From: Dictyostelium discoideum
Taxonomy: Eukaryota
DNA: 64,000 nucleotides
Reading direction: 5' to 3'
Assembly: GCA_000004695.1 (NCBI GenBank)
Contig: CM000152.2
Location: 2,560,001-2,624,000 of the forward strand
Positions within the stretch are counted from its first letter, which is position 1. Each line of letters begins with the position of its first letter. This document shows positions 33,261 to 61,500 of this stretch, piece by piece. The notes beneath the pieces were generated by a model. That model worked only from the letters and a program-made list of their open reading frames with translations. It did no database searches and was not told the DNA's origin. A program made the position numbers and the translations under genes.

Positions 33261-36200
33261 ATGAAAAGTGGTTTATTTTTAACATATATAACATTTTTAA
33301 TAATAATAAATATTGTTAATTGTGGAATCTTTAAATTTTTAGAACCAGTAAATTATATATCATCATCAAAATGGAGACTATCTAGAGACAGATCAATGAA
33401 TATTGGATGGAATTCCGAAGATCACAATGATACAATTCATTCAATAACAACATCATCAAGTGGACAATATATAATTTCATGTTCAAATGATAAATTAGCA
33501 AAATTTCATAGAGTTTTAATGTAAGTTAATCAATCAATTAATTAATTAATCAATTAATTAATATTTATTAATATTTATTTTATTTTACAAGGTATCCAAA
33601 TTTATATCCAGATTGGACACATATTTATTATGGAGAATTAAAATTAAGAGGATATGGTAATGATGATATTGAGAATTTAAAATGTTTACAAACATTAGAT
33701 GGTAAACAATTATTAACATTATCAGTTAATAAAAAAGAGAATAGAGTTCATTTGGATACTTTTACATTAATTGAATTAGATTCAATTGAAAATAGAAATC
33801 CAATAATAAACATTAAATCACCACAACCACCACCACCAAACATTAATCAATTATCAAATATTACAAACTTTAATATAATATTCCCATTGGATGATTATAA
33901 TGAAGTTTTTGTAAATTCATCATCTTTAAAATCAAATTTATTAAAATCACATATTTCAAAATCATCTTTAAAACAGCTTGAATCAAATAATCATTTTTCA
34001 CCATATACAACAACCTTAATAAATAAATTACAAAAATCACCACAAGGAGAACAGCAACACCAACAACAACAACAACAACAACAACAACAACAACAACAAC
34101 AACAACAACAACAACAACAACAAGGAGAACAACAACAACAAGGAGAACAACAACAACCAATTTTTGATTTATCATTAAATGGTAAACATTTATTATTATC
34201 ATTTGATAATAAAATTAAAATTCAAAAAGTTCATAATCAATCAAATGATAATGGTAATCAAAAGTTTAAATGGGAAATTATAACAATTGAAGCAAGATAT
34301 AAAATTCAAGATGTTGTTTTTTTACCTGATAATAATGAAAATGATAATTCAATATTAGTTTTATTATTAGATTTAGAGAATGATGGTGATGGTAGTGATG
34401 GTAGTGATGGTGGTGATGATAGTGCTCAAAATTATCATCATCATCATCAATTAGAGAAACAAGCTAAATTAATTTTATATAAAAATATTGATGGAAAGAA
34501 ATGGAGACCAATTGAATTGGAAATTTCAAATCTACTTTTATCAACATCATTGAAAATCATTAGAAATAAAGCATTACCTCAAAATGATTGTATTTTAAAT
34601 AAACAGCAACAAAAACAACAACCAATTTTCGTTGGATTTCAAGATGATAGATTCACTGTTCATTTAGGTGAAATTAAAAATGATAAATTGATTTTAATTA
34701 AATCATTACCATTACCATTTCACCAAGAATTACCAAATGATCCAAATCATAGAGTTTCAATTGATTTTTCAAAAGATTCAAAAATGTTTTCAATTCAATA
34801 TCCAAATTCAAATACAATTTATATATATACAAGAGATGATTTTGATAATGAAGATAATAATAATAATAATAATAATAACAATAATAATAATAATGATGAT
34901 GATGATGGTTCATATTCGTTTAGATTATCAAGTATAATAGATGATTTGCCAATTAGATCACATGGTTCTGTATTGTTATTCAATTTTAAATATAATTATT
35001 TAGTTACAAATTTCGATGGTCATTTATCATTTTTTAGAGATTTTGAAACTCAAGTATCACAATGTGATCCAGCATCACGTACAAAAAGTTTTTATTTACC
35101 TTCACCACCTTTAAAATCAAATATTACTGGTAGTGATAGATTAGAACTTGAACAATTTGGTTTACTTTATTTACTTAAAATTGGTACCAATTCATCATCA
35201 TCATCATTATCATCAACATCAACATCATCATCAATTAGTCAAATTCAAATTAAAATTTTAATGTATACAATTTTTGGATATTCTTTAGTAATTTTATTAC
35301 AAAGATTATTAATTCCATTGGAGGTTTATTATATTGGTCCATTTATTAATAAGGTTTTAAAGAAAATTAGTTTTACTAAAATTAATATTAAAAATATTCA
35401 AAATATTTTATTTTATTCAATTGCATTGGTTATTTTATTACTTTCATTCTATGAAATTACTTTTCAAGCAGCATATACAAATGATTGGCCAGCTCATATT
35501 CATCATATTGATCAATTTTTAAATCCACCTCCTAAAAATATTTCAATATTTAATTCAATATCTGATTCAAATACAAATATTGCTTTTGGTGGTGGTAGTA
35601 CCACTACCACTTCAAATGATGAACAGTTAAATTATAATGATAATAATAATAATAATAATGAAGGTAGTGCTGAAAGTGATTTAAATAAATTATTCCCATC
35701 AATTCAATATCGTCAACAAAAGGATGATATTGATAATAGTGGTTCAAGTTCAAGTAGTGAAGAATTTTTTAATAGTTTAAATATTAAAGCACCACAAGGA
35801 AATAGTAATTTTAATTCAAGTAATGGAGGTTATCAATACTTTTCAAAATATTTACCATCATTTTTAAGAGATAAATTCGATTTCGATTATAATAATTATA
35901 TGCATTATCATGGTCCAAATACTTATCCAGCTGGGTTCCTTTATCTTTATACACTACTATACTATATTAGTAATCATGGTCAATCATTACAAATATTTCA
36001 ATTGATTTGGGCATTTTTAGAATTTTTCAATTTCATTTTAATTAAAAAGATTTGTGAAAAATTATCAATTCCAATCATTTTAGCTGTATTACCAATACTT
36101 TCAAATAGATTACATTTATATAATGTTAGAGTTGTAATTAATGATTTTCCATCAACTTTTTTAATTCATATTTGTGTATTATTATTAATTAGTAAAAGGT

Positions 36201-58545: not shown

Positions 58546-61500
58546 ATGAAATTTTCAAAGATTTTCTCTATTTTCATTTTAATTCTTTTATGCATTGGTA
58601 CTTTAAAATCAATTTCCATAGATGAATGTAAGTAAATAATTTTTATTTTTTTATTATAATTTTTAAAAAAAAAACTAATTATTTATTATAATATAGATAA
58701 TTGTTTGGGTTTAGTTCTAACCCAATTTGGAATGAATAATTTTATTCCAAATAGGGTCAATGCTACTGGACAAATCGAATATTGTCTTCCTTTTAACATA
58801 ATTACCTGTGACACAAATGAAAGTGTAATAGGTTTGAATTTATTTCAATTTCTTACATATGGCGTTATAAGTGCAAGTTCTTTCACATGCTTTCCAAATT
58901 TAAAATCATTGTAATTTTTTTTTTTTTATATATTTTTTTTTTATTTTTTATTTCTTATTAATTTCCATTTTTTTTTTCAGATCACTTCAACAAACAATAC
59001 TTAGTCCAGATTTTTTTTATACTCTACCTTCAACATTAAAAAGTTTAGATTTAGATGGTTGTTCTGGTGCTACAAAAATAACATCAAAACTTCCTCCATT
59101 TGACTATTTGTGTGTATAAAAAAAAATATATATATACATAAAAAAAAATCCAATTTTTTACTAATCTTAATACTATTATTTTATTTTGTTTTAATTTGTT
59201 TTATTTTATTATATTTAGCAAAGTTATTTCTATTTCTTCAGATACATTCACTGTTTATTTATCATGGATTCAAAATATTAAATATTTTCATTTTTCAAAT
59301 TATGATTCCAATTATCCAACTATGAATTCAACATATATAACAGATAATGAAAACATTGAAAACTATACAACAATTGAAATTTTTAAATTTTCAACCAATT
59401 TAATACCGGATATTACTGACTTCTCATTTTCATTGGTGTATGAAAAAATAATATTATATTATAAACTATTATTAATATTATTATTAATATTATTATTATT
59501 ATTATTATTATTATTATTATTATTATTATTATTATTATTATTATTATTATTATTATTATTATTATTATTATTATTTTTATTATTATTATTATTTATAGTG
59601 AAATGGTTTTAGGAAATTCTTTTCAAAGTTCATCATTAAATAATTTAACAACCTTTTCAAATGTTATTGATTTTAAGATTTGGTATTATACAAAACCTAT
59701 AGATATACCAATACAATTACTACAATTAAGTAGATTACAAAATTTGTAAGTTGTTTAGGAAAAAATAAAAAAATAAAAAAAATAATATAATTTTACTTTA
59801 CTAATAAAAAAAAAAATAATAAAAATAAAAAAAGACAAATTAATATAAATTTTAAAGTACCATCTTATCAATATGATTTCTCAAATTTAACATCATTATC
59901 AATACTTCAACTTATGGATGAATCATCAAATAATAATAACCTTGGAAGAAATGGTTTCCCAATTTCAAAATTACCACCAAACTTAAATGAATTTTATTAT
60001 GGAGGAATTTTAAAGAAATTGCCATCAATGGAAATTTTTAAAGATATTAAAATTGTTGATTTCTCATTTGGCCAAATCAATGATACATTAAAAGATGTTT
60101 TCTTACCAACAACATATGGAATTAATTATTTGTAATTATTATTTACTTATTTATTATTTATAATTTATCCTAATCATAAATTATTAATTATTATTTTTTC
60201 TTTTCTATAATATAGTTATTTTCAAAGTAATACATTATATGGTACAATACCTCAATCTTATTGTAATTTTATAACGGATTTTAGTACAAATACTTTAACT
60301 GGTGAAATTCCAAAGTAATTGTTTTTAAAAATTTAAAAAAAAAAAAAAAAAAAAAACAATATTAATATTTATTCAAACTTTTCCTTATTCTTCATTTTAT
60401 ATTTTAGTTGTTTTACCTGTTATTTTGGTGATTCTGAAATTGGTTTAAAAAATTTATTTGCAAATAATAAATTCACAAATTATGATACCCAAAACCTATG
60501 TAGTATGTTTTTTTATTAAATTAAACTTGTCTAATTTTTAACAATTATTAATTATGTATTTAATTTTTAGCGTCAATGAAACCAAATTTATTAGTTAATG
60601 CTACAACTTTAATATTATATGGTGAATCTTTAGGTTTTAATGGTAAACTTATAAAAACAAATGCAACAGGTTCGACAACTTTTACAATGATTCAACCAAG
60701 TAGTTATTTTACATTAAATTTAAGAACAACAAATATATTTGCAAAAGGTGCAAGATCATTAATACTCACTTGGACAGTTGGTAGCGAAATTAGAAAATTC
60801 ACATTACCAATTGTTAAACAAGCACCTGTACCTGCAAATATTACTTACAGTGGTATTGCATCAAATCAAGTTGAAATAAATGGTGAATTCTTTACATATA
60901 ATATTCAAGATGTTTTAGTTTTAGTTAGTGGTATTGATTGTCTTGTCACTTCAACAACATTCAACCAAATCAAATGTAAATTAACAAAAGGTTTAAATGA
61001 AAGTATTGTATTACCAGTTGATTTTATTTTTGTTGACATTATTGCAGGTGGAAACAAAACAAGTGTTTATGTTAGATTACAAGAAACATCATATATAAAC
61101 AATAAAAAGTGTAACCCTGAACTATGTACTTCCAATACATATTGTAATTTAAATGATGGAATTTGTTATCCATATTTAGATTGCTTTTCAGATTGTACAA
61201 TAAACAATGCATTTTGTAATCATGGTAATGGTTTGTGTGATTGTAGAAATAATTGTAGTAATGCAGGTTTATGCAATGGTGTAGATGGTACTTGTTCGTG
61301 TAATCCCGATAGATTATTCAACGATTGCAGTGGTATTCAATGTCCAGGTACACCAATTTGTTCAAATCATGGTACTTGTGATACCTCAAATGGAAAATGT
61401 AAATGTGAATCAATTAAATGGGTTGGCAATGCATGTCAAGATACTCAACATTATGTAAATGCAATTACACCATCAAATGAAAATGGTGGTAAAGTTTTAT

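Follow-up and report, generated by a model that had tools for sequence, protein, structure and literature searches.

Do introns that are largely made of a trinucleotide repeat carry it for the sake of the reading frame, or as a passenger? The question is raised by a 64-kb stretch of the Dictyostelium discoideum genome (assembly GCA_000004695.1, contig CM000152.2, positions 2,560,001 to 2,624,000, forward strand; hereafter the window, to which all coordinates refer). Four of its genes, namely ALG3, IVD (isovaleryl-CoA dehydrogenase), LSM1 (LSm1) and ComC_B (DDB_G0279859, the "receptor paralog B" of an earlier note on this DNA), each contain an intron with a long (ATT)n array. The earlier note had described these introns as frame-preserving and had proposed either a bias toward introns with lengths divisible by three (3n, as opposed to 3n+1 or 3n+2) or microsatellite expansion inside introns. 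The four tracts are ordinary U2-type GT..AG spliceosomal introns. Very probably an AAT/ATT-class microsatellite arose and expanded in each of them by slippage, and the repeats are passengers without reading-frame meaning. The frame-preserving interpretation is refuted by the introns' own coordinates, by a census of 46 introns together with the published genome-wide distribution, and by the lack of conservation between strains.

The four repeat-bearing introns

The window has a G+C content of 21.1% and is saturated with low-complexity DNA. Each of the 22 complete genes was modelled. Their ranges and product lengths were taken from the annotation of the near-identical assembly GCA_054883475.1 and mapped onto the window, and introns were assigned by finding the GT..AG combinations that yield a stop-free coding sequence of exactly the annotated length. 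The solution was unique for most genes, and four genes were confirmed by an exact protein match. The spliced IVD and LSM1 models (the latter 129 aa) are identical, residue for residue, to XP_641504.1 and EAL67532.1 of D. discoideum AX4. The nine-intron model of ComC_B, which includes a GTGTGT donor, equals XP_641511.1 residue for residue (annotated product 1141 aa); its LRR_ComC, beta-sandwich, EGF and supersandwich domains identify a ComC-family protein. The model of its paralog A (ComC_A) matches KAM9949516.1 exactly. By the exact matches of IVD, LSM1 and ComC_B, the window is chromosomal DNA of D. discoideum and in essence the AX4 reference. ALG3 has a unique three-intron solution at the annotated 1223 aa, without an exact sequence match among the proteins compared. 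It was checked by annotated length only, as were NOB1 (582 aa), a 976-aa gene and a 402-aa gene; the lack of an exact database sequence for these models is presumably due to differing lengths of homopolymer runs. Sey1 at its annotated 894 aa has introns of 153 and 87 nt, and models of 883 and 865 aa were dropped because of the annotated length. The repeat-bearing introns and their arrays, as delimited by Tandem Repeats Finder (TRF), are as follows.

36199..36355, plus strand: ALG3 intron 2, 157 nt (3n+1), phase 2, GTAAAT..TTAG
36224-36354: ALG3 sense (ATT)n array, 44 copies, 86% match (TRF), 83% of the intron, longest perfect run 80 nt
38248..38433, minus strand: IVD intron, 186 nt (3n), phase 1
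38321-38430: IVD sense (ATT)n array, 36 copies, 94% match (TRF), 59% of the intron, longest perfect run 67 nt
38258-38289: sense poly(T) of the IVD intron, a 32-nt homopolymer
48440..48591, minus strand: LSM1 intron 2, 152 nt (3n+2), phase 0
48456-48544: LSM1 sense (ATT)n array, 29 copies, 86% match (TRF), 59% of the intron, longest perfect run 63 nt
59438..59598, plus strand: ComC_B intron 4, 161 nt (3n+2), phase 2
59467-59593: ComC_B sense (ATT)n array, 42 copies, 95% match (TRF), 79% of the intron, longest perfect run 88 nt

Canonical GT..AG boundaries lie exactly where the earlier note had placed them in all four introns, with the donor..acceptor pairs GTAAAT..TTAG, GTAATT..AAAG, GTATGT..ATAG and GTATGA..ATAG. 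A long trinucleotide tract is likewise present in every one, recovered by TRF as a period-3 array of 29-44 copies with 86-95% match. The repeats are real and non-random: (ATT)10 has 156 matches in the window versus 0 expected from 100 dinucleotide-preserving shuffles. None of the four introns is pure repeat, as the arrays make up 59-83% of them, and calling the tracts essentially pure overstates the case for two of the four; the first ~45 nt of LSM1 intron 2, for example, are non-repeat sequence of mixed composition. The G+C content of the tracts is 2-13% versus 26% in exons. At 152-186 nt, the four introns are longer than typical for the window (median 96 nt) because of the array.

The identification of the tracts as introns holds on four lines of evidence. 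Besides the exact spliced-protein matches for IVD, LSM1 and ComC_B, homologs or domains continue across the IVD, ALG3 and ComC_B junctions. When the unspliced IVD reading is aligned with solved IVD structures, query residues 37-181 match residues 12-156 of the chains in the Protein Data Bank (PDB) and residues 240-477 match 153-390, so that the ~60-residue tract has no counterpart in the PDB homologs. The Pfam domains ALG3 (PF05208) and LRR_ComC (PF24141) each match as a single stretch across the junction in the spliced ALG3 and ComC_B proteins, and the LSM1 junction sits just past the LSM domain. The strongest argument comes from frame logic between strains. An identical 129-aa LSM1 product appears in the annotation of four further assemblies, where intron 2 measures 210, 111, 114 and 114 nt; the tract is thus not translatable in one consistent frame across assemblies. 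Given the length changes in LSM1 and IVD, translation through the tracts would shift conserved downstream exons into different frames.

Length polymorphism was assessed against the near-identical GCA_054883475.1 and four non-identical assemblies, two of D. discoideum strains and two of "D. cf. discoideum". Splice sites are kept in the orthologous introns, and lengths change freely. All 27 comparable introns vary in length over the window and the five assemblies, 24 of them across more than one modulo-3 class (ComC_B introns 5 and 9 were left out, as identical flanks map them to ComC_A). Repeat copy number differs at all four orthologous loci, which bears out the second alternative of the earlier note, microsatellite expansion inside introns. 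ALG3 intron 2 is 157 nt in the window versus 86 nt in ACTFIW, with longest perfect runs of 80 versus 15 nt. The IVD intron occurs at 186 (window), 181 and 92 nt, and thereby in all three modulo-3 classes; the 92-nt allele has ~5 units against the 67-nt run of the window. LSM1 intron 2 measures 152 nt in the window and the near-identical assembly and 114, 114, 210 and 111 nt elsewhere, where the sense ATT block is down to 12-15 nt in most assemblies and a sense AAT block near the 3' end reaches 20-48 nt. ComC_B intron 4 measures 161 (window), 215 or 143 nt with runs of 88, 133 and 79 nt, all differences being multiples of three.

The window and GCA_054883475.1 are identical at the repeat introns except for the IVD poly(T), which counts 32 nt in the window versus 27 in GCA_054883475.1 (L001 4533-4713) and is the sole difference between the two in that intron. 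The shorter poly(T) turns a 3n intron into a 3n+1 intron. The difference may be real variation, or it may be a homopolymer sequencing or assembly error in either assembly. Whether the IVD intron counts as 3n is decided by how long its poly(T) of 27-32 nt is called, which makes frame arguments on such introns fragile.

Two further introns serve for comparison, one from LSM1 itself and one from the ComC_A paralog.

48777..48891, minus strand: LSM1 intron 1, 115 nt (3n+1), without an AAT-class repeat, internal comparison
54728..54813, plus strand: ComC_A intron 4, 86 nt (3n+2), phase 2, with a sense (AAT) run of just 17 nt in this strain

The orthologs of LSM1 intron 1 measure 116, 144, 135 and 124 nt. 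ComC_A intron 4 had been described as a conventional intron at the position of the ComC_B repeat. Position and phase are indeed homologous and the intron is 86 nt long, but it is conventional in this strain only, given (AAT)n runs of 39-51 nt in two others. Its alleles of 113, 110 and 92 nt differ by multiples of three and carry sense (AAT)n runs of 51, 39 and 9 nt, respectively.

Some observations concern the same genes more broadly. ComC_A intron 5 is 74 nt long with a 9-nt AAT run in the window versus 123 nt with an 83-nt sense (AAT)n run in GCA_054859205.1 (D. cf. discoideum, L008), an independent microsatellite birth or expansion in another intron of the same gene. The two ComC-family genes form a tandem pair on the plus strand (53814-58034 and 58546-62792; 1136 and 1141 aa) with an identical nine-intron structure and a near-identical large exon of 644 codons. 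Both the length and the repeat content of their introns have fully diverged, and some exon flanks match so closely that they map to either paralog. The ALG3 gene (33261-37278, plus strand) matches PF05208 in the C-terminal part only of its 1223-aa annotated product. The N-terminal ~640 residues, which include poly-Gln and poly-Asn tracts, have no Pfam match. Both parts are joined in one continuous exon of 2607 nt (33592-36198).

Probable slippage and the distribution of the arrays

Introns of ~90% A+T, with little constraint beyond splice sites and a minimum length, would readily give rise to short ATT seeds, which could grow or shrink in 3-nt steps by replication slippage. Other indels, chiefly in A/T homopolymers, would add arbitrary length changes. 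The array would lengthen the intron and play no role in the reading frame. An ATT-dominated intron would occasionally be stop-free, and 3n one time in three, in which case the IVD intron of the window would be a coincidence. Neutral slippage with superimposed homopolymer and other indels is the simplest account and fits the known figures for simple sequence repeats (SSRs), polymorphism and mutation in D. discoideum. SSRs are reported to make up 11-14% of the genome, mostly as trinucleotide repeats with AAT and CAA as the commonest motifs, and non-coding DNA reportedly contains one repeat per ~392 bp. Natural clones show a gene diversity of 0.73-0.80 at non-coding triplet repeats. Indels arise at twice the rate of substitutions, which are strongly A/T-biased (PMC9234386, PMC3460934, PMC6387519, PMC7466956 for all of these figures).

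Microsatellite-filled introns are therefore already known, as a textbook property of a repeat-rich genome. The arrays resemble the non-coding AAT-class microsatellites described for D. discoideum (Eichinger et al. 2005, as relayed in PMC9234386 and PMC3460934; Scala et al. 2012, PMC3460934) in their AAT/ATT motif, their 20-40 units and their non-coding location. They also share the high polymorphism between strains and the origin by A+T-driven slippage that these accounts (PMC9234386, PMC3460934) put forward. The passages on these microsatellites do not single out introns against intergenic DNA, and we see no real difference otherwise. The host introns fit the short, AT-rich GT..AG introns of the species (median 104 bp; PMC4683709) in their GTAAGT-like donors, (T/A)AG acceptors, ~90% A+T and positions conserved across strains and between paralogs. 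The four differ from these in being longer (152-186 nt).

The coding poly-Asn (AAT)n tracts of D. discoideum, 17 of which lie in the window, belong to the same repeat class and share its slippage dynamics. They differ from the intronic tracts in having AAT on the sense strand and in being translated, whereas the intronic tracts lie on the opposite strand and are spliced out of the mRNA. The window contains 24 AAT-class runs of 18 nt or more, 17 of them exonic, five intronic and two intergenic. Each of the exonic runs has AAT on the sense strand and encodes poly-Asn, as expected given that the opposite strand would encode hydrophobic homopolymers. All five intronic runs are ATT on the sense strand and lie within the four repeat introns. 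The 18.5 kb of intergenic DNA contain just two such runs. Examples of exonic runs and both intergenic runs are given below.

19346-19421: exonic AAT run
25344-25445: exonic AAT run
43957-44036: exonic AAT run
53002-53105: exonic AAT run
17283-17302: intergenic AAT-class run
48135-48159: intergenic AAT-class run

Several points weigh against neutral slippage in ordinary introns as a full account. The density of AAT-class runs in the introns of the window is 3-10 times that of intergenic DNA at each threshold from 9 to 30 nt. Intergenic DNA is A+T-rich too (13.5% G+C, ~86% A+T) and has a homopolymer load similar to that of introns, hence composition-driven slippage alone does not obviously predict the intron enrichment. 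An exact protein match covers four gene models, and the remaining census depends on product lengths from the automatic annotation of a near-identical assembly; the PP2A-B''-like gene had 36 alternative intron solutions. Finally, both splicing and the neutrality of the repeats are inferred, the former from annotation, homology and frame logic.

The enrichment could mean that arrays are favoured in transcribed DNA, be it as U-rich intron-definition elements, as minimum-length spacers or through transcription-associated slippage. Such a role would explain both the excess of introns over intergenic DNA and the sense ATT orientation. At the 18-nt threshold, runs cover 63 nt/kb of intron sequence versus 2.4 nt/kb of intergenic DNA, the enrichment of introns holds for all thresholds between 9 and 30 nt, and the five intronic runs of at least 18 nt are uniformly sense ATT. 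The sense strand of introns also contains more T (0.51) than A (0.40), and the ALG3 and ComC_B introns would retain only ~26-34 nt without their arrays. The sample is small though: a single 64-kb window supplies four introns, and runs that share an intron do not count as independent. In other strains these introns are spliced with hardly any repeat (IVD at 92 nt with ~5 units, ALG3 at 86 nt with a 15-nt run), and 42 of the 46 introns of the window are without such an array. The orientation is not general either. Sense (AAT)n runs of 20-83 nt occur in introns of other strains (LSM1 intron 2, ComC_A introns 4 and 5), and a strict rule of sense ATT in introns was rejected on these grounds. We consider a favoured role of the arrays in transcribed DNA improbable.

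A descriptive form of the pattern deserves separate mention. AAT/ATT microsatellites might cluster in transcribed DNA and be sorted by strand, with sense AAT in exons and preferentially sense ATT in introns, while intergenic DNA of similar A+T content is comparatively poor in them. We regard such a partition as doubtful. The contrast between introns and intergenic DNA rests on few independent loci in one 64-kb window, and other strains depart from the strand rule. If true, the partition would suggest that slippage is associated with transcription, or that selection acts on intronic U-richness or against AAUAAA-like sequences arising from sense (AAT)n.

Reading frame and intron length modulo three

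The earlier note had given the length of all four introns as a multiple of three, yet its own coordinates yield 186 nt (3n) for IVD, 157 nt (3n+1) for ALG3, 152 nt (3n+2) for LSM1 and 161 nt (3n+2) for ComC_B. Only one of the four is 3n. The wider bias toward 3n introns that had been suggested is absent from the window, which contains 46 introns with a median length of 96 nt and 10% G+C. Their lengths divide into 17, 16 and 13 by modulo-3 class (chi-square p = 0.75), and 17 of 46 is no excess over the expected third (binomial p = 0.64). An in-frame stop is present in 16 of the 17 introns with 3n length, the exception being IVD, and 3n status varies between assemblies. Genome-wide, the comparison that the earlier note had proposed yields no skew, with published fractions of 0.335, 0.332 and 0.333 over 17,468 D. 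discoideum introns (Roy & Penny 2007, Table 2; PMC1950532).

Translation was also said to read straight through the introns. This is true for IVD (poly-Tyr) and ComC_B (poly-Leu), which are stop-free in the frame of the upstream exon, and fails for ALG3 and LSM1, which contain stops. The minus-strand open reading frame (ORF) across the IVD intron reads ...KKTGN(Y)n...(F)nNKKEGGW and stays open, with poly-Tyr and poly-Phe; this is the sole stop-free 3n intron in the window. In ComC_B intron 4, the upstream frame is open across the intron as poly-Leu and is then frameshifted to a stop at 59610-59612. ALG3 intron 2 has an in-frame TAA inside its GTAA donor, LSM1 intron 2 has an in-frame stop right after the array, and in both introns every sense frame holds a stop. 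One further intron had been adduced as in-frame, from a gene for a putative nuclear protein.

13538..13639, plus strand: intron of the 976-aa gene, 102 nt (3n), phase 0, without a microsatellite, unique solution for the annotated 976 aa

Its length is indeed 3n, but it contains an in-frame stop that closes the upstream ORF at 13600. Translations seem to run through introns because (ATT)n on the sense strand gives Ile, Leu or Tyr codons and has no stop in any frame, which requires no selection for frame preservation. The striking poly-Tyr and poly-Leu pattern of the six-frame translation is a by-product of stop-free sense (ATT)n in a genome rich in trinucleotide SSRs.

Selection for frame-preserving 3n introns would make the in-frame (ATT)n part of a design, whereby intron retention inserts a homopolymeric peptide and does not truncate the protein. 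The 186-nt IVD intron, stop-free in frame, and ComC_B intron 4, stop-free in the upstream frame, would suit such selection. Against these stand the three introns that are not 3n, the in-frame stops in ALG3 and LSM1, and the absence of a 3n excess in the window (17/46) or genome-wide (0.335). The stop-free 3n property is unconserved in the orthologs. IVD moves through three modulo-3 classes, so that retention of the 181- or 92-nt intron would shift the frame, and the ACTFIR counterpart of ComC_B intron 4 runs into an in-frame stop at nt 19. In ciliates, where selection has been demonstrated, stop-free 3n introns are reported to be depleted, because a retained one is not caught by nonsense-mediated decay (Jaillon et al. 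2008, as cited in PMC5014332). The IVD intron fits this class of stop-free 3n introns, and its retention would escape the decay pathway. In the parts of that literature that treat the class (Jaillon et al. 2008 via PMC5014332; PMC1950532), it is depleted or taken as a flag for annotation errors, whereas here it amounts to one intron in 46, unconserved and without a genome-wide skew. Selection for frame preservation is thus highly improbable.

That the tracts are mis-annotated coding sequence, translated as poly-Tyr, poly-Leu or poly-Ile insertions, is almost certainly wrong. In its favour, very long homopolymer runs are a feature of D. discoideum proteins, 17 exonic AAT runs lie in the window, and the IVD tract leaves its ORF open. 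Against it, every one of these exonic runs is sense AAT (poly-Asn), whereas intronic ATT would yield hydrophobic Ile, Leu or Tyr. Stops interrupt ALG3 and LSM1, and the frame is shifted by three of the four tracts. Tract G+C is 2-13% against 26% in exons, and the flanking donors (GTAAGT-like) and acceptors (TAG) follow the consensus. The IVD tract has no counterpart in solved homologs, and length changes between strains that are not multiples of three would destroy conserved downstream exons.

Neighbouring genes

Two further loci of the window were recorded alongside the introns. At 22186-24699 on the minus strand, the AX4 annotation has DDB_G0279815 (148 aa, single exon) and DDB_G0279817 (222 aa, one intron of 108 nt). 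The newer annotation of GCA_054883475.1 merges both into a 349-aa CfaA_B_C product with ~1.3 kb of intron, and the models conflict. At 49748-53314 on the plus strand lies an intronless ORF of 1188 aa with a ~128-nt (AAT)n poly-Asn tract and no Pfam match. Its orthologs in other assemblies range from 1170 to 1245 aa, which indicates that the length of this coding repeat is polymorphic too.

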